Part shown: one piece after another, positions 34,516 through 49,609 of the stretch
How positions within the stretch are numbered: the first letter of the stretch is position 1
How the letters are laid out: each line of letters starts with the position of its first letter
DNA from: Botryllus schlosseri
Taxonomy: Eukaryota
NCBI GenBank assembly: GCA_051294905.1
Contig: CM119371.1
Span: forward strand, 6,512,001-6,576,000
Length of the DNA stretch: 64,000 nucleotides
Direction of reading: 5' to 3'
Translations under genes and position numbers: made by a program
Notes under the pieces: model-generated
Databases searched by the model: none
Seen by the model: the letters and a program-made list of their open reading frames with translations, nothing else
What the model was told of the DNA's origin: nothing

Positions 34516-35584
34516 AGTTTTAACAAAGTTCCGAGTCACAGGTCAATTTGACTTTGATAGTTTTGACTCGAGTCATTTCCAATTCACCACAGAGTAGAGT
34601 CCAAGTCATAGTATTTACTGTTCAGTATCTATAGTTCAAGTCAGGTTGAACTCACCTCTGTGAAACACTTGGGTGATATCGACAGCCTCGGGGATTCGTG
34701 ATGTAATCATTTTTTCTGACATTAAATATGTTTATTCAAATAGATAAAAGACAGTTTCTTGGCCTATTTTTCAATTATAATTGAATTATCGGTCCTGATA
34801 TACGACAAGATAGCGTAATGGTGAAGCCAAAGACCAAAGACTTGAGTAGTAACACTGTTATCCATGACTTCCCTGCTTGGCGCTCATGCATATATGGAAT
34901 CGCATGGAGGGGTGGTGCAAGACTCGGAAAGCCATAAAAAAGGCTATATCTGCACGTTCCTTGTCCAGCGGCTTATGCACATCATGCGCTCATGATATGC
35001 ATATGCGCAGATCGTGTGTATGTGTAGCATGAGTCGGTGTATATGCCGCAAAATACAGCACGGACAAAAATAAGCTACGTCCTTTTCCTTTCCTAGGATT
35101 ACCATATTTTAGAATCCGGCAAGGACGACACTTTTATCAAATCATAAAAGTTAGTTTTGAAAACAACTGATTCTGTTATATTGTCTGGAAATCTCGTTGT
35201 GTTGACTTTAAAAAGTCATATTCCTTCGCTCATCGTACTATATAGATCAGGGTTGTAACCAAGTCACAAGGCTCCGAGTCACAGGTCAATCTCACTTTTG
35301 AACTTTTGACTCGAGTCAAGTCGAGTCATTTTCAATTCACCAACGAGTTAAGTCCGAGTCCAAGTCAACGAGCAGAGGGTCGAGTCCGAGTCATGGTATT
35401 ATGACTCGAGTCCGGGTCCAAGTCATTGTGTTGACTGCTCACTTGCTCAGTTTCCAGTTAAAGTCTTGCTAAACCCACTTTTTACAACTCTATTTGGTGA
35501 TATTGAATGGTTCGCATTTATAATATACCGTACCAATTTTCCTCACTTTTAGCAGTTTCTGGTCGCATTTTCAAGTACCACTAT

Positions 35585-35820
35585 TGTGGTGTATCAGTCC
35601 CTTTTGACCACTAGTGGGTGTTTATACTGATTGCTCCTGATTACCTTCACGTCGGGACTATTCATTTCATTCGTACCAGTTGGGTGTGGCGTCGCTTCTG
35701 TCAGTTGTACCTACGTTAACTCTGTATTATTGCCATGTTGTATTCAGATACACTAGCTTACTTTTATGTTAATAAAAGCCTAGGAACCGATCGTATTGAG
35801 TTCTATCGAAGGGTACAACA
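35585..35820 (+). repeat. 5' LTR
   Basis: TGTGGTG...TACAACA; AATAAA at 35771-35776. Confidence 0.98.
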
Positions 35821-35849
35821 ATTTTATTAACATAAATGGTCATCTCAAC

Positions 35850-38426
35850 ATGGCGTTCTCTCAAGAAAAGTACATACGTGTGCCAGTTTTGGAAGTGATG
35901 CCAAGCTCGGCTGACTCGCAGAAGATATTCAATCATTGGGAGAAGATGTTGGGGAAATTCTTAGTTGCCGCGCAGGCCTCCGCTTCAAACTCAACGGCTC
36001 CCAATCGATCCTCTTCTGACCCTCCAGCTGAAGTGACTATTGACAAATTAGCTATTCTATACGGATATATATCTCCGGATGTGTTCGCTCTTGTAGAGCA
36101 CTTCGCTACGTATGAATCCGCTCTTGAGGCGCTATGCAAGCTCTACAAGAAAAAGAATAACGTGATCTACTCCAGACACCTCTTGGCAACGTCTCGTCAG
36201 GATCAAGGAGAAAGCGTCACGGATTTTTCGCTAAAATTGCTTACTCTCGCTAAAGATTGCATGTTCGCTGCTGTAAATTCCGACGAGCATCAAAAGGAAG
36301 CAGTTCGCGACGCCTTAATTGCTGGCTTACGTTCGCCTAATATTCGTCTTAGATTATTGGAGCACGATGATATGACATTGGACAAAGCGGTTCAGATAGC
36401 CGAATCTCTCGAGCGAGCTCAGCAATTTTCGTCTTCTTACGAGCCCATATCGATGCCCGTCCCTGTCGCCGTGAGTGCTGTGGGATCTGAACAGACGACT
36501 AATAGCGATCAAGTCAAAATAACGCCGGAGGGGACCGGCGAAGTTGCATTAGTCACGAAAGCATACAAGAAGTGCCAATATTGCGGCAGTCAACATTACC
36601 CTCTGCGCAAGGTCTGTCCCGCGAAAAACGCCGATTGCTATAAATGTGGATATAAAGGCCATTTCGGTAAGGTATGCAAAAGTGGCACTCAAAATAGGAA
36701 GATCGCTGCGCCAGCGTATGATTCTGATGAAGCCTCTCATTTGGCTTCTCTAGACGCCGGTGGAACTGGTGCGGTAACGTTTAATTCCGCCGAAGTGGCG
36801 GACCTCGCTTCCCTGTTGATTGGAGTACCGAAATCACTCAGATACTCGGCTATCATCATCAATATAGCAGGATTGACTATAGAGGCGCTGGTCGACTCGG
36901 GGGCCTACGAATGCTTTATGAGACGATCGTTTGCTAATTCGCTTGCACTCCCTCTGCACGGACCGGAATCCACTATTACTCTGGCATCGAAGGACTCCAC
37001 CTCTAAAGTATTGGGGCACGTTACTTCGCCATTCACAATACAGGATCATAAATACAGCGAAACACGTTTCGGAGTCGTAAACAACTTGTGCGCGGATGTG
37101 ATCTTAGGATTGGAGTTCCTGAAAACTCACAAGAACGTCATTTTCAAGTTCAACGGGCCTCGAAGCGACTTGATCATCGGTGATTCTCACTGTTCCGTCG
37201 CTGCCGCTAAGATTACAGAGACGCCAAAGATATTCCACTTCGTTGATAGAAATGTCGACCCCATCGCTGTGAAATCAAGAAATTATTGCACCGACGACGC
37301 CCAATTCATCAAAGAAGAGGTGTCAAGATTACTGCAAGAAGATGTGATAGAAAAGTCCGTCTCTCCGTGGCGGGCTCAGGTTCTGGTGACGAAAGATGAA
37401 CGCCATAAAAAGCGGTTAGTTATCGACTATTCTCGAACTATTAATAGATATACGCCCCTGGACGCGTATCCGCTCCCTAGAATCGAGCATATTGTTAATG
37501 AAGTCGCTAAAGGAACGGTATATAGCACCATCGATCTGAAATCCGCGTATCATCAGGTGCCTCTTTGCCCTTCAGACCGTCCTTTAACAGCTTTCGAAGC
37601 TGACGGTAATTTATACCAGTTTCGTCGATTGCCTTTTGGGATAACAAACGGCGTCGCAGCTTTCCAGCGATTCATAGACAATTTCATCCGAAATCATAAC
37701 CTGCAAGGTACTATTGCTTACCTGGACAATGTTACTATTTATGGCAAAAATAGAAAAGAACACGATAAGAGGTTGGAACGTTTTATGACTTCAGCCAAGG
37801 CTGACGGGCTGACTCTGAATGAAAAGAAATGTGCGTTCTCAGTTGAAAAGTTATCGCTCCTGGGGTACCTTATTTCCCATAACAAAATTCAGCCTGATCC
37901 TTGCCATTTGAAACCTTTGATGGATATGCCCATCCCTAACAATGCAAAAAGTTTAAAGCGCTGCTTGGGTATGTTTGCCTATTATTCGAAATGGATACCT
38001 TCGTTTTCGGAGAAAATGAAACCATTGACTCGAAACATTGAATTTCCGTTGAAAACCGATGGACTCCAGGCTATCAAATCGTTGAAAAATAGCCTTATAG
38101 GTGCTTGCCTAAGTTGTATATATGACGACGAACCTTTCGAGGTTGCCTGTGATGCTTCGGACGTGGCTATCGCGGCCATACTAAGTCAAAGAGGCAGACC
38201 TGTAGCGTTTATGTCGCATACTCTTTCCAAATGCGAGTCAAAATACAATATTGTTGAAAAAGAGGCTCTCTCGCTATTATTGAGGCCATACGAAAATGGG
38301 GATACTTGCTTCACCGCAATAAGTTCCGCCTCGTTACCGATCAAAAAGCATTGTCGTTCATATTCAGCAAAACTCACGCTAGTAAAATCAAAAATGCTAA
38401 GTTGTCGGTGTGGAAACTCGAATTGA
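35850..38426 (+). CDS. Gag-Pol polyprotein, first part (Gag, CCHC knuckle, protease, RT, RNase H start)
   Basis: First ATG at 35850; CYKCGYKGHFGKVC; LVDSGA; IDLKSAYHQ, LPFG, YLDN; CDASD. The natural frame is lost at ~38270. Confidence 0.93.
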   Translation: MAFSQEKYIRVPVLEVMPSSADSQKIFNHWEKMLGKFLVAAQASASNSTAPNRSSSDPPAEVTIDKLAILYGYISPDVFALVEHFATYESALEALCKLYKKKNNVIYSRHLLATSRQDQGESVTDFSLKLLTLAKDCMFAAVNSDEHQKEAVRDALIAGLRSPNIRLRLLEHDDMTLDKAVQIAESLERAQQFSSSYEPISMPVPVAVSAVGSEQTTNSDQVKITPEGTGEVALVTKAYKKCQYCGSQHYPLRKVCPAKNADCYKCGYKGHFGKVCKSGTQNRKIAAPAYDSDEASHLASLDAGGTGAVTFNSAEVADLASLLIGVPKSLRYSAIIINIAGLTIEALVDSGAYECFMRRSFANSLALPLHGPESTITLASKDSTSKVLGHVTSPFTIQDHKYSETRFGVVNNLCADVILGLEFLKTHKNVIFKFNGPRSDLIIGDSHCSVAAAKITETPKIFHFVDRNVDPIAVKSRNYCTDDAQFIKEEVSRLLQEDVIEKSVSPWRAQVLVTKDERHKKRLVIDYSRTINRYTPLDAYPLPRIEHIVNEVAKGTVYSTIDLKSAYHQVPLCPSDRPLTAFEADGNLYQFRRLPFGITNGVAAFQRFIDNFIRNHNLQGTIAYLDNVTIYGKNRKEHDKRLERFMTSAKADGLTLNEKKCAFSVEKLSLLGYLISHNKIQPDPCHLKPLMDMPIPNNAKSLKRCLGMFAYYSKWIPSFSEKMKPLTRNIEFPLKTDGLQAIKSLKNSLIGACLSCIYDDEPFEVACDASDVAIAAILSQRGRPVAFMSHTLSKCESKYNIVEKEALSLLLRPYENGDTCFTAISSASLPIKKHCRSYSAKLTLVKSKMLSCRCGNSN

Positions 38427-39598
38427 GCGCCTTCAAGTATGAAATAATTCATCGCCCGGGTACTGAGAATGTTGTTCCTGATACATTTTCTCGTGTCTGC
38501 TGCTCGTTGCCAAATTCTGGCTTGTCTCTCCATCAGGTGCACGAAGCTCTTGCTCATCCCGGAGTACGACGGTTGAACCATTTTATTAGAGCGAAAAACT
38601 TGCCATTCTCTGTAGATGAAGTCCGAAAGATCTGCGCTAACTGCAGAATATGCTCCGAAATCAAACCGCGATTCTATAAATCCAATGTCCATCACCGTCT
38701 CATTAAATCGACTAGACCGTGGGAGAGAATAAGTATTGATTTCAAAGGCCCTGTTGAAGGACCTCGAAAGTATCTGCTCGTAATTATTGACGAATACAGC
38801 AGATTTCCATTTGCGTATCCATGCCGAGATATGACATCAGCTACCGTTGTTAATTGTCTCACTGATTTGTTTTCCTTGTTCGGTCTGCCCGAATATGTTC
38901 ACAGCGATCGTTCAAACTCGTTCTTATCGAAGGAAGTAACGACGTTTCTTACCCGTAAAGGCATAGCAACGAGCAAAACTACTCCGTACCATCCCACTGG
39001 AAACTCTCAATGTGAGCGTTTGAATCAAACGCTCTGGAGATCAGTAAGAATGCTCTTAGCCTCACGAAAATTGCCTGAAAGTTCATGGGAAGCTGTGTTG
39101 CCTGATGCCCTTCACTCTATCCGTTCGCTTCTGTGTACTACTACTAATTCGTGTCCGCACGACAGATTTTTCAATTTCAGTAGGAGAAGTATGATGGGGG
39201 AATCGGTTCCAGATTGGATACTCCAAGGAGGCTCCGTGTTGCTGAGGAACTTCGCAAGGAGAAGTAAAAGTGATCCGCTCGGAATCGAAGTCGATTTGCT
39301 CGAAGCTAACTCCAAATATGCCTTGATCCGGCATCCATCTGGAGTGGAATCGACCGTCTCAGTCAAGGACCTCGCACCTTATCCGCCTACTACTGAGCCC
39401 TACCCAGTCGATGATGGGGCTGCCGAACCGGACCGTGCAGTGGCCGACGATTCGTTTCTGGTTGAACCTACGGTTGACGTTGGCAACAAACAAGATTCTT
39501 CAGAAACTTTGCAAGAAGTTGTCGCTGATCCTCCGCCCTTGAGAAGATCAACTAGAATCAAACGCGCGCCTGAACGATATGGACAATCCTCTTTATAA
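38273..39598 (+). CDS. Pol, second part (RNase H end and integrase), out of frame by a 2-bp insertion
   Basis: AIIEAIRKW...TDQKAL (RNase H); HEALAHPG...CANCRIC (HHCC); DFKG/HSDRSNSF/NSQCER (DDE core). Confidence 0.9.
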   Translation, partial: AIIEAIRKWGYLLHRNKFRLVTDQKALSFIFSKTHASKIKNAKLSVWKLELSAFKYEIIHRPGTENVVPDTFSRVCCSLPNSGLSLHQVHEALAHPGVRRLNHFIRAKNLPFSVDEVRKICANCRICSEIKPRFYKSNVHHRLIKSTRPWERISIDFKGPVEGPRKYLLVIIDEYSRFPFAYPCRDMTSATVVNCLTDLFSLFGLPEYVHSDRSNSFLSKEVTTFLTRKGIATSKTTPYHPTGNSQCERLNQTLWRSVRMLLASRKLPESSWEAVLPDALHSIRSLLCTTTNSCPHDRFFNFSRRSMMGESVPDWILQGGSVLLRNFARRSKSDPLGIEVDLLEANSKYALIRHPSGVESTVSVKDLAPYPPTTEPYPVDDGAAEPDRAVADDSFLVEPTVDVGNKQDSSETLQEVVADPPPLRRSTRIKRAPERYGQSSL

Positions 39599-39626
39599 TT
39601 ACTTTGCTTTTGTTAGTGGGGGAGAT

Positions 39627-39862
39627 TGTGGTGTATCAGTCCCTTTTGACCACTAGTGGGTGTTTATACTGATTGCTCCTGATTACCTTCACGTCGGGAC
39701 TATTCATTTCATTCGTACCAGTTGGGTGTGGCGTCGCTTCTGTTAGTTGTACCTACGTTAACTCTGTATTATTGCCATGTTGTATTCAGATACACTAGCT
39801 TACTTTTATGTTAATAAAAGCCTAGGAACCGATCGTATTGAGTTCTATCGAAGGGTACAACA
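39627..39862 (+). repeat. 3' LTR
   Basis: Identical to the 5' LTR except CTGTC->CTGTT; preceded by the PPT. Confidence 0.98.
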
Positions 39863-40713
39863 ACTATCATTAGACGAAATTCCAATAGTGTGGTTACTTT
39901 ACTGTTATTCGAAATTTCAATGAAATATCAGTTTCGGCCGTCTGAGTCCCGAGTCATATGACTTGATCATGGAACTGACGAGTAAAGCATACACAACATA
40001 ACAGTAAAACACATCAAGTTTTATTTTAAATCACTGTTGTAGTAAAGTTTCATATAGTGTGGAATGTCATGAATAAACTTGAAATGAACTGAATGTATTC
40101 AATTGTTATATACTTCAGTTTGCTACTACTTGTACTGTATTTGTATATAAGTAGACAAGATTGAGCTTTTTAGCCTGCCTACCCATTTACTGAACTTAAA
40201 ATGACGTCCCACTTCAGTGCACGGAAGTCAAACAGATTGTGTAGCAACACAATGCAATGTGTGACCTCATAATGCAATGTGTAACCTCATAGAGGTCTAT
40301 GACTGTAATGTTATGTAGGCTAACCATACAGTTTGCCTTCGTTCAATCAGAAATTGCCTTGCTTTCCTAGTGATTAACTGCTTCACCGCTTAAATTGGCA
40401 ATTTTTATTTAAAGTATACAACAATATGACTTTATAGCTCCAATATGACCTAACCTGGAAAATATGACTTTATAACTTATACCCCATGGCCATAGGGATG
40501 CGGTTTTTGCTAACTTGATTTTATGACTTACTGATGCATAGAAAAAAATATGACTTTAATGACTTTAAATGGCCCTAATGATAACCCTAAATAATGACTA
40601 TACATGGACCACCTCTGCTAAATTCTGCCATCAGAATACCTAAACCTGTAGGTGTGCAGAACTCACAAGGACACTTGAAAAAGTTACCGAATATTTCTCG
40701 AAGAATGATAAAT

Positions 40714-45986: not shown

Positions 45987-48401
45987 GTTAAATGACCGAG
46001 GTCCATAAATCCCATCAGAATGATGTCAACACATACACGGTAGTTCTGGACGAATAACTTGAGAAATTATTTTTACAGTTCCTGAAATTGGCATCCCAAG
46101 GCACTTGCTGACTTGCCCCCTGCCTAATAAAGCAGTAACAAAACACAGAAGCAAAATTTGAATTCTGCTGCACAAGCTACTGGTAAAGGTAACACTGCAA
46201 AGTAACCTTGTGGTCCAAAATAATTCCATCTTACTTCTTCACAATCGACAACATTGTCACAAGGTAGGCTATATGCCACACAACACTGGAAGGCTACCTG
46301 TTTCACGCTATTTATCGTAGAAAGAGGCAATTCCCTCCTACCTCGAAACCGGAATGGAATTGGTGGCAATGTCACGCAGGATTTTCTGTTTATTTGCTTA
46401 ATTATTCTATACAGAAAAGCTCTCATCACGCAGGATTTATTTAAAAAAATGAACCGAGATTCCATATAGGCCTCGAAACACACAGGCGTACAATTTACTG
46501 GTACAAGATACTCTCCCGATAACTTCGTTAGTCTGGCAGATTGAAAATTGCGGCCCACGGGGGGGGCATCCCTAAAAGACGGAGAAGCGGAGGCAGCGGA
46601 GACAGCGGAGGCAGCGGAGAATGGACCCTAAAACGCGGAAACAGCGGAGACAGCGGAAAGAGCCAAAAATGCCGATTCCTAAAAGACGGAGATAGCGGAG
46701 ACCGGAGCTTTCGGTCATTGACCTTTATAGACACGCGCGACATAGCGGACGGATACTGGAAGCGGAGTTCGGGACCCCGCGAAATGGACATAGCGGACGG
46801 TTATATAATATAGAAAGCGGAGATCAGGGCGTATCGGAAGATGTTTCGAAGCAGTGGAGAATAACGGAGAAGTCAGCCATGCGAGTTCAAGGCCAATTTG
46901 GCGACTGATTGCCCGTCGATGAGATGACATAGCGGACGGATCCTGAAAGCGGAGTTCGGGGCCCCGCGATATAGACATGGCGGACGGTTATATGATATAG
47001 AAAGCGGAGATCAGGACGTATCGGAAGATGTTGCGAAGCAGTGGAGAATAACGGAGAAGTCAGCCATGCAAGTTCAAGGCCAATTGGGCGACTGATTGCC
47101 CGTCGATGAGATGACATAGCGGGCGGTTATATAATACAAGGAAAGCGGAGTTCGGGTCGTATCGGAAGATGTTTCGAAGCAGTGGAGAATAACGGAGAAG
47201 TCAGCCATGCGAGTTCAAGGCCAATTTGGCGACTGATTGCCCGTCGATGAGATGACATAGCGGACGGATACTGAAAGCGGAGTTCGGGGCCCCGCGAAAT
47301 AGACATAGAGGACGGTTATATAATATAGAAAGCGGAGATCAGGGCGTATCGGAAGATGTTTCGAAGCAGTGGAGAATAACGGAGAAGTCAGCCATGCGAG
47401 TTCAAGGCCAATTTGGCGACTGATTGCCCGTCGATGAGATGACATAGCGGACGGATACTGAAAGCGGAGTTCGGGGCCCCGCGAAAAAGACATAGAGGAC
47501 GGTTATATAATATAGAAAGCGGAGATCAGGGCGTATCGGAAGATGTTTCGAAGCAGTGGAGAATAACGGAGAAGTCAGCCATGCGAGTTCAAGGCCAATT
47601 TGGCGACTGATTGCCCGTCGATGAGATGACATAGCGGACGGATACTGAAAGCGGAGTTCGGGGCGTAGCGAAATATATTTCGAAACAGCAGAGAATAACG
47701 GAGAAGTCAGCCATGCGAGTTTCAGGCCAATTCGGTGATTTGCTTGCCCTATCGATGAGATGACAGCGGACGCGTTTCGTATGACAATTTAACTGATGAT
47801 AGTTGTGGAATATTACTGAACTACTTTCTACTTTACAAAAACCGAATTGCAAATGTAATTAGTTCATCCAGAATGCTGTTCAGGTAGAATTTGAAGTAAT
47901 TGCGAAACATTACCACTTCAGTAAGTACGGGAAATAGCCCAAATCTACTTGATTACCCCGAAAAAGTAGAAATATTCAACATATATAATATCCGAACAAC
48001 GTGATGTGATAAAGCAAAAATAACGTCAGATTCGTATTCAGCGCCCCCAAATTAGGTATAATTGACCCGAAGAAGTCCTGGCGCAAAAATTCTGTAGATC
48101 AGCGTTATTGGTGCTGCGGCGTGCGACGCCATCAAACCAGGAAATTGGCCCGTGAGCACATTCTAGTTTGAGACCTCTGCACTAGTGACTATAATGCGAA
48201 CTCTGTAACAACTTGCTATGAACCCAATATCGGGGCATTTTGCCTGGCCTTAACAATCCACCTTTGCTCGACTCGATCTTCTCCTTATTTGCTAACACAT
48301 GTCACTTCATTAACGAAATATCTTTTACAAATTATATACAGATGTTACCAAAATGAAACGAAGAAAATATATACAGTCATGATAAAAGGTTAAATAAAAG
48401 T

Positions 48402-48671
48402 TCACGGCTGAATTTTAGCAGCTAAGCAGTTTTTGCGGTAGCAAATGAAGTATGTCATCTCATCAGCCTTTTCATCGACTGGGCAGGACTTGGGGAACCA
48501 TCTTCGACATTTCACACACATTATCTGCTGATCTTGGTCTTTACTACCTTTACATAAGCTGCTGTCGCAATTATCCCATTTCGATTTATTCATGACACCA
48601 ATGGCAGATGAGGAATCGGCTAGCTCTGCATATGTAATATCACTTTCTGATATTGCATTCCAATCATCCAT
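48402..48671 (-). pseudogene. C-terminal PHD-finger-like fragment in the centre of foldback 2
   Basis: CDSSLC-x-IMCVKCRRWFPKSC-x-FICYRKNC follows C4HC3 spacing with the His replaced by Pro; the ATG overlaps the repeat arm, implying an internal deletion. Confidence 0.65.
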
Positions 48672-49609
48672 GGCTGACTTCTCCGTTATTCTCCGCTGCT
48701 TCGAAACATCTTCCGATACGCCCCGAATTCCGCTTTCCTTGTATTATATAATCGCCCGCTATGTCATCTCATCGACGGGCAATCAGTCGCCCAATTGGCC
48801 TTGAACTTGCATGACTGAGTTCTCCGTTATTCTCCACTGCTTCGAAACATCTTCCAATACGCCCCGAACTCCGCTTTCCTTGTATTATATAACCGCCCGC
48901 TATGTCATCTCATCGACGGGCAATCAGTCGCCAAATTGGCCTTGAACTCGCATGGCTGACTTCTCCGTTATTCTCCACTGCTTCGAAACATCTTCCGATA
49001 CGCCCTGATCTCCGCTTTCTATAGTATATAACCGTCCGCTACGTCTATTTCGCGGGGCCCCGAACTCCGCTTTCAGTATCCGTCCGCTATGTCATCTCAT
49101 CGACGGGCAATCAGTCGCCCAAATTGGCCTTGAACTTGCATGGCTGACTTCTCCGTTATTCTCCACTGCTTCGAAACATCTTCCGATACGCCCCGAACTC
49201 CGCTTTCCTTGTATGATATAACCGCCCGCTATGTCATCTCATCGACGGGCAATCAGTCGCCCAAATTGGCCTTGAACTCGCATGGCTGACTTCTCCGTTA
49301 TTCTCCACTGCTTCGAAACATCTTCCGATACGCCCTGATCTCCGCTTTCTATATTATATAACCGTCCGCTATGTCTATTTCGCGGGGCCCCGAACTCCGC
49401 TTTCAGTATCCGTCCGCTATGTCATCTCATCGACGGGCAATCAGTCGCCAAATTGGCCTTGAACTCGCATCGCTGACTTCTCCGTTATTCTCCACTGCTT
49501 CGAAACATCTTCCGATACGCCCTGATCTCCGCTTTCTATATTATATAACCGTCCGCTATGTCTATTTCGCGGGGCCCCGAACTCCGCTTTCAGTATCCGT
49601 CCGCTATGT

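Follow-up and report, generated by a model that had tools for sequence, protein, structure and literature searches.

A primer-binding site complementary to its own LTR in a young Ty3/Gypsy element of Botryllus schlosseri: comparative support for self-priming in an animal clade without a chromodomain

The window analysed here, a 64-kb stretch of contig CM119371.1 of Botryllus schlosseri, contains a recently inserted copy of a small Ty3/Gypsy LTR retrotransposon. We consider it probable that this young copy primes the synthesis of its minus strand with a piece of its own RNA, in the manner of Tf1, and that the same design is common to a clade of animal elements of about 4 kb. Comparison of related sequences strongly supports this self-priming reading, short of proof. 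To date, self-primed reverse transcription is demonstrated only for Tf1-type elements; the predictions concern mainly chromoviruses, along with one Copia lineage of plants. The mechanism itself is already known, and what seems to be new is the lineage, a Ty3/Gypsy clade of animals that is devoid of chromodomain.

Organisation of the element

The element measures 4278 bp (4.3 kb) from LTR to LTR and lies on the forward (+) strand, as do all features described below. A direct repeat of 239 nt (35583-35821 and 39625-39863) delimits its two LTRs: a 5′ LTR of 236 nt at 35585-35820, which starts with TGTGGTG and ends with ACAACA, and a 3′ LTR of the same length at 39627-39862. The insertion is bordered by the target-site duplication ACTAT, read at 35580-35584 and again at 39863-39867. 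The polypurine tract GGGGGAGA (39618-39625) stands one base before the 3′ LTR, and the same motif precedes the 3′ LTR of related families. The hallmarks of Ty3/Gypsy elements are therefore present, namely LTRs bounded by TG and CA, a duplicated target site and a polypurine tract ahead of the 3′ LTR. The two LTRs differ at one base only (C35702 versus T39744), which indicates that the insertion is young.

The gag-pol reading frame (35850-38426) encodes a Gag with an ordinary CX2CX4HX4C knuckle (CYKCGYKGHFGKVC), a protease, a reverse transcriptase with the motif YLDN and the start of RNase H. In the window copy it is interrupted by a frameshift between RNase H and integrase, where two frames overlap (38258-38426), and the end of RNase H and the integrase, with its H2C2 and rve domains, are read in the other frame (38258-39598). 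At least eight other copies possess a single open frame of 1270-1271 aa. The order of the Pfam domains, gag-asp_proteas, RVT_1, RT_RNaseH_2, rve and Integrase_H2C2, is the protease, reverse transcriptase, RNase H and integrase order of Ty3/Gypsy elements, and the best match to a solved structure is the reverse transcriptase of Ty3 (4ol8, E = 1.1e-45). The earlier note on this DNA, made from its letters alone, had seen no evident chromodomain. The domain search bears this out: Pfam recovers protease, reverse transcriptase, RNase H and integrase in the window element and no Chromo match at E <= 0.01. Furthermore, PF00385 is absent from the precomputed domain lists of the 120 closest relatives.

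The catalytic motif C of the reverse transcriptase (37800-37830, in the 35850-38426 reading frame) reads YLDN, the usual form being YxDD. With a crude pattern, that of the first [YF][LIVMA]D-x no more than 70 aa past PFG, the motif was found in 110 of the 120 closest relatives, where it is YLDN in 50, YLDD in 33 and another x-D-N form in about 13. The second aspartate would thus be often replaced in a clade that looks active.

Complementarity between the LTR and the site that follows it

In place of a tRNA-type primer-binding site, the earlier note had reported a perfect self-complement of 15 nt, starting one base after the 5′ LTR and involving a part of the LTR that includes AATAAA. All three points are confirmed. 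The stretch TTTTATTAACATAAA (35822-35836) is the exact reverse complement of the LTR arm TTTATGTTAATAAAA (35763-35777), it is separated from the last base of the LTR (35820) by A35821 only, and the polyadenylation hexamer AATAAA occupies 35772-35777, inside the arm. We predict that the arm is a self-primer and that 35822-35836 is the primer-binding site, which would thus be complementary to the LTR of the element and not to a tRNA. The pairing ends sharply, the positions that follow being unpaired both outward (35762/35837) and inward (35778/35821). The stem consists of 14 A-U pairs and 1 G-C pair. It is included in the minimum free energy fold of 35755-35870, with a z-score of -2.3 that is only modest because the stem is nearly all A-U.

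To evaluate chance, each 30-nt internal window was compared with the LTR of the same element for the longest exact complement, in 16 elements (the window copy and 15 relatives described below). In these control windows the longest complement averages 5.8 nt and never exceeds 10 nt, and 0 of 5829 reach 12 nt or more. At the position that follows the LTR, a complement of 10-18 nt to the element's own LTR is found in 16/16 elements. The self-complement is not due to chance. These elements display one of the features that define the self-primed class, a site beside the 5′ LTR that complements an upstream part of the same LTR, in the absence of a tRNA site.

Conservation in the family and in other families of the same genome

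At least 40 matches to the LTR were found in the host genome (495 Mb, 219 contigs). Both arms are unchanged in 14 of the 18 junctions between 5′ LTR and internal region that could be aligned. Arm changes that break pairs occur in L005, L012, L015 and L016, as in decayed copies, and at the depth of the family there is no informative covariation.

The same 18 copies bear on the idea that a host RNA primes the element, be it a tRNA whose 3′ end would anneal at TGGTCATCTC, half of a tRNA or some other small RNA, the match with the LTR being then incidental. A TGG is present at 35837, which the earlier note had named as a possible refutation of self-priming should a host tRNA match it, and a pattern resembling a tRNA 3′ end has four matches in the genome versus two for the reversed control. 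However, this TGG sits 16 nt from the LTR and is not conserved. It reads TGA (TGATAATCTC) in 4 of the 18 copies (L013, L014, L015 and L017, a 91-94% subfamily of which two members have intact frames of 1271 aa), and it is missing in sister families, where the site is followed by unrelated spacers or directly by the start codon. None of the four genomic matches is tRNA-like: a tRNA is expected to have a C at the first position of the T-stem, and 0 of the 4 have one. In addition, no tRNA gene was found in the 64-kb window.

More distant relatives were retrieved from the same genome with the reverse transcriptase-RNase H region as query. The 114 matches fall into identity tiers of 72-75, 64-66, 60-62, 55-57 and 52-53%, and we analysed 20, selected in the different tiers because their open frames are long, a sample that leaves aside families at 52% and 55% and further ones at 60%. 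Clean LTR pairs were obtained for 15 of the 20, with LTRs of 158-260 nt and TG..CA ends. With the window copy included, 5-bp target duplications are found in 16/16 elements (perfect in 15), and the complement starts at +1 relative to the CA of the LTR in 14/16, otherwise at +2 or +3. These families, whose reverse transcriptases are 53-75% identical, retain the pairing with 12 distinct arm sequences. The LTR arm ends 34-69 nt before the end of the LTR and is usually followed by GCC or ACC. When each site was compared with the LTRs of all families, its best match was the LTR of its own family.

The pairs themselves illustrate this joint divergence. Arm and site read TTTAGTGAATAAAA/TTTTATTCACTAAA in L039 and TTTTAGTCAATAAAA/TTTTATTGACTAAAA in L040, and the difference between the two (..GTGAATAAAA/TTTTATTCAC.. 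in L039 versus ..GTCAATAAAA/TTTTATTGAC.. in L040) is compensated. Other pairs are ..TTAGTAAAA/TTTTACTAA.. in L044, TTCTATGTTGCTTAAA/TTTAAGCAACATAGAA in both L037 and L049, AATATTAAAGTAG/CTACTTTAATATT in L038, where the complement has 13 nt and starts at +2, and TTAGTTCATTTAA/TTAAATGAACTAA in L050. Among the five loci without clean LTR pairs, the signature is present in L041, L043 and L046, and absent in L031, where an internal deletion removes the site, and in L048, for which no LTR pair was found.

Relatives on metagenome contigs

We also scanned metagenome contigs with an alignment of the relatives, which yielded 80 loci with reverse transcriptase identities of 46-59%. A search for LTR pairs detected flanking repeats in 25 of 58 loci, 6 of which failed the TG/CA rule, so that the method was usable on 19 of the 58. 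Six of these have short complements and 13 share the design, their arms being 13-19 nt long and the complement starting at +1 in 12 loci and at +5 in L083. The failures of this method are mostly repeats at contig ends (123-127 nt) or mutated LTR ends. Between L059 (CAAGTTGATTAAA) and L062 (CAAGTTTATTAAA), one pair differs and the change is compensated in the site.

A second scan, independent of the LTRs, was anchored on the reading frame and searched the region upstream of the gag start for the stem. A perfect stem of at least 11 bp with a loop of 40-69 nt is present in 16 of the 17 loci that have an intact gag-RT frame, the exception being L113, where 12 of 14 positions are paired. Hairpins of this size are rare in the background (457,540 bases scanned). 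The region is available in 50 loci, of which 25 show the strict signature (CA, then a single base and the site; arm followed by RCC), with 21 distinct arms and one doubtful case, L084. The other 25 comprise 6 loci with an imperfect form, 2 that are cut by the end of the contig and 17 with no hairpin. All 17 have a broken gag-RT frame, and could represent either decayed copies or genuine exceptions.

In several families the start codon lies directly after the site, which leaves no room for a tRNA site. It overlaps the last base of the site or follows it within 5 nt in 8 of the 16 hairpin-bearing metagenome loci, and in L037 and L049 of the host genome it follows after 2-3 nt. Altogether, the position after the LTR carries about 30 different sequences across families. 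Each is matched to the LTR of its own element, a correspondence that a host tRNA could not follow. These covarying primer/site pairs, about 30 in number, represent an unusually clean comparative support for a clade of animal Gypsy elements without chromodomain.

Covariation of the two arms

The earlier note had proposed to look for compensatory covariation between site and LTR in related Gypsy families, and this is what we observed, with changes on both sides at 15 of 18 pairs (66 cells). The alignment comprised 18 sequences, from 11 families of the host genome and 7 metagenome families, and extended from the 18 nt that end at the 3′ end of the arm to the 18 nt that start at the site; L038 was left out of the count as it was misaligned by MAFFT. 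In the 18-pair helix 90.1% of the cells are paired, versus 68.7% (SD 1.6) in shuffles and 32-50% with slid partners, and the covariation score is 0.564 versus 0.157; as the windows were anchored on a complement already found, these values favour pairing, although the anchors themselves are the LTR end and the conserved RCC. None of 500 shuffles equals the observed values on any measure, and the inner 12 pairs contain zero unpaired cells. The same helix, with 16 pairs, was returned unprompted by RNAalifold and is present in 18/18 single-sequence folds.

In this alignment the RCC that follows the arm (35778-35780 in the window) is nearly invariant. Single folds often pair it with a GGY near the CA of the LTR (35811-35814 in the window) or involve it in a local hairpin, and the RCC/GGY pairing leaves the terminus of the LTR bulged. 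As judged from these folds, the RCC/GGY element could be part of the structure recognised by RNase H. A conserved inner stem-loop comparable to the U5-IR of Tf1 was not recovered by RNAalifold from the 18 sequences.

A model for self-priming

The primer of the minus strand must anneal right after U5. The geometry that the earlier note had drawn from a single copy holds throughout the relatives: the last base of the arm is paired with the start of the site, one base beyond the CA of the LTR. Since the arm ends opposite the first base of the site, a 3′-OH created by cleavage at this point could be extended across one base into U5.

We thus propose the following scheme, in which the pairing potential of arm and site is shown and the formation of the duplex in the RNA is inferred. 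The transcript would start within the LTR, at or just upstream of 35763. Its first 15 bases or so would fold back and pair with 35822-35836, closing a loop of 44 nt that contains the rest of R, U5 and the extra A. By analogy with Tf1, the RNase H of the element would then cut after A35777, just before the conserved RCC (GCC at 35778), and the reverse transcriptase would extend the 3′-OH, copying A35821 and then U5 and R. Extension from A35777 through A35821 would place the LTR end exactly where it is observed. Following the standard scheme of reverse transcription, the plus-strand strong-stop DNA would copy the RNA primer, so that the site would be rewritten from the LTR arm at each cycle. Such rewriting would explain both the perfect and sharp-edged arms of young copies and the joint drift of arm and site between families.

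With self-priming, R would extend to about 35800 and the putative U5 would correspond to 35801-35820. This boundary is suggested by the contig pieces of run X1 (of unknown kind), which cover 35583-35770 at a depth of 26, 35741-35800 at 38.7 and 35771-36049 at 10.3. The sequences diverge at 35800/35801, that is 23 nt after AATAAA. The genomic copies of the LTR have GT at 35800-35801 in 29 of 30 cases, so that a variant in the assembled DNA does not account for the X1 branch. The divergence hints at the addition of polyA 23 nt past AATAAA. A crude argument from the X1 depths gives a very weak indication that the transcript starts nearer to 35745 than to 35763. In two single-cell runs the LTR depth is only 0-9, with no pile-ups of starts or ends, and 0 reads of the bulk RNA run X21 (organism B) were placed on the element. 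The 5′ ends of the arms are mostly T or C and not the purine usual at transcription starts, which counts against self-priming. TATA-like words are found at variable distances from the arm 5′ end (-27 to -43), with a clean TATAAAA at -31 in L047 only.

Other explanations of the pairing

Among the alternatives, the one that survives best places the arm in U3, with transcription starting between AATAAA and the polyA site, as in retroviruses that have a very short R. The pairing would then be a long-range or intermolecular contact between 5′ and 3′ ends, possibly a new mode of priming or a guide for the first strand transfer. The poor initiator sequences at the arm 5′ ends would be accommodated in this way, as would the resemblance of TTAATAAAAG to a TATA box. 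However, if polyA is added near 35800, transcription that begins about 30 nt past this TATA-like word would leave no R. In L037 and L049 the arm lies 27 nt upstream of AATAAA and is not a TATA box there, and L047 has its TATAAAA 31 nt upstream of the arm. Moreover, a primer cut from the 3′ U3 would presumably separate the template of the first transfer from R and the polyA tail. We regard this arrangement as improbable.

Slightly less credit, and in our opinion very little, can be given to a stem that acts only as a regulatory or structural hairpin, for masking of the polyA signal, packaging or dimerisation, the priming being ensured by something else. Masking, which the earlier note had advanced as a second possible function, has real arguments in its favour: a polyA signal located about 10 nt from the cap requires silencing at the 5′ end, local formation of the stem is restricted to this end, and the arm contains AATAAA, ATTAAA or AGTAAA in 10 of the 12 types of the host genome and, among 20 types from the metagenome contigs, a canonical hexamer in roughly 12. 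As a conserved function it does not stand. AATAAA lies outside the arm in L037 and L049 (27 nt downstream) and in L050 (8 nt downstream), and several metagenome arms end with GTTAAA, GTTTAAA, TGTTAAAA or TGAAGA, with no canonical hexamer. Since about a third of the arm sequences are in this case, masking is at most a side effect, possibly beneficial where the hexamer does fall in the arm. In addition, the 3′ arm is always at the place where a primer anneals, one base past the CA, and there is no other primer site.

Finally, priming by a host RNA, considered above with the TGG at 35837, is barely credible.

Relationship with known elements

According to two reports, the Tf1 transcript anneals by its first 11 bases to the primer site, and RNase H cleavage falls between bases 11 and 12 (PMC7175516, PMC4600332). 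Self-priming is shown for Tf1, and it has been put forward for Tj1, the Tf1/sushi group "from fungi to vertebrates", Tcn1-like chromoviruses and TAR, a Copia lineage of plants (PMC4600332, PMC6317226, PMC6934838). Compared on this basis with Tf1 and Tf2 of Schizosaccharomyces pombe and Tj1 of S. japonicus, the present elements similarly have a primer site beside the 5′ LTR that complements an upstream stretch of this LTR. The duplexes are of similar size, 11 bp in Tf1 and 12-19 here, and both Tf1 and the present elements have a single gag-pol frame (PMC7175516, PMC4600332). In contrast to Tf1, Tf2 and Tj1, the present clade has no chromodomain, lives in animal hosts and has very short LTRs (150-300 nt), and its arm usually ends with a polyA hexamer followed by the conserved RCC. 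The RNA start and the cut are demonstrated in Tf1, whereas here they are deduced from the sequence.

For the Tf1/sushi elements of vertebrates, the Tcn1 clade of fungi and non-seed plants and TAR, the evidence is of the same nature as ours, namely the lack of a tRNA site and a complement to the element's own LTR (PMC6317226, PMC4600332). Those elements are, in contrast, chromoviruses or Copia elements, and the chromodomain that Tf1/sushi elements carry at the integrase C-terminus is absent from the window element. Among clusters with automatic names, those nearest to the clade are "K02A2.6-like" and "Gypsy retrotransposon integrase-like", not Tf2-like; such automatic names are only a lead. The hosts of the named relatives are ascidians, moths, a coral and a sea slug, and the best of these relatives are ascidian proteins with 57-64% identity.

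The 5′ end of the LTR, TGTGGTG, recalls the TGTGGYG of the CsRn1 clade (PMC3601003), and the hosts of this clade are also invertebrates. In CsRn1 elements a tRNA-Trp site is accompanied by a CHCC motif in Gag and by 4-bp duplications (PMC2582038), and membership of this clade, considered on account of the LTR start, is ruled out by the self-complementary site, the CX2CX4HX4C Gag and the 5-bp duplications in 16/16 elements. The Mag lineage (C-clade, with SURL) and Cigr-1 of Ciona are likewise small single-frame elements. Mag C elements also share short LTRs (174 nt on average) that end with ..AYANAACA, a likeness drawn from a published table (PMC3601003). Cigr-1 is a candidate relative of the present clade.

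Our searches of the open literature revealed no account of self-priming in invertebrate Gypsy elements, whether Mag-like, Cigr-1-like or other, and an earlier mention is possible in subscription journals or in GyDB and Repbase notes, which lay beyond this search. One could go further and view self-priming as the ancestral and universal mode of a large and old clade of non-chromodomain Gypsy elements of about 4 kb, across many animal phyla; in this broad form we find the proposal rather unlikely. If self-priming is the mode of these elements, each family would carry a private primer/site pair that drifts freely, because the site is rewritten from the RNA of the element at each cycle. The clade would be freed from its dependence on host tRNAs and from small-RNA defences directed against tRNA primer sites; 3′-tRNA fragments are said to target such sites (PMC7472051). 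Self-priming would also have arisen or persisted outside chromoviruses, which would bear on the idea, discussed in PMC3601003, that the earliest LTR elements used a 5′ hairpin to prime themselves.

The clade offers predictions that can be tested throughout, regarding where the transcript starts, where RNase H cuts (A|RCC) and how R and U5 are laid out, and its matched pairs constitute a natural series for studying how reverse transcriptase and RNase H recognise an RNA-RNA duplex. It also provides a rule for annotating elements now called "no PBS", an outcome that pipelines report for such elements because they seek only tRNA matches. Some annotations may be at fault in another respect. Three relatives (P0092, P0118 and P0047) are filed as bacterial, under the names "DDE-type integrase" and "transposase InsO family", on contigs of about 4 kb from metagenome bins; they are most likely contigs of animal retrotransposons that were wrongly binned.

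Surroundings of the insertion

The element is inserted in another, very abundant repeat (35450-35584 and 39868-39900), for which the depth of the X1 contigs is in the thousands. Many reads and contigs run from 35580 directly into the sequence that follows the 3′ LTR, as at an empty site. Just upstream of this host repeat, the region 35260-35440 is rich in GAGTC/GACTC (…gagtcaagtcgagtc…, …gactcgagtccgggtcc…). Further downstream in the window, two tandem-repeat arrays are found at 46739-47740 and 48649-49609, with spacings of 141 and 187 nt.
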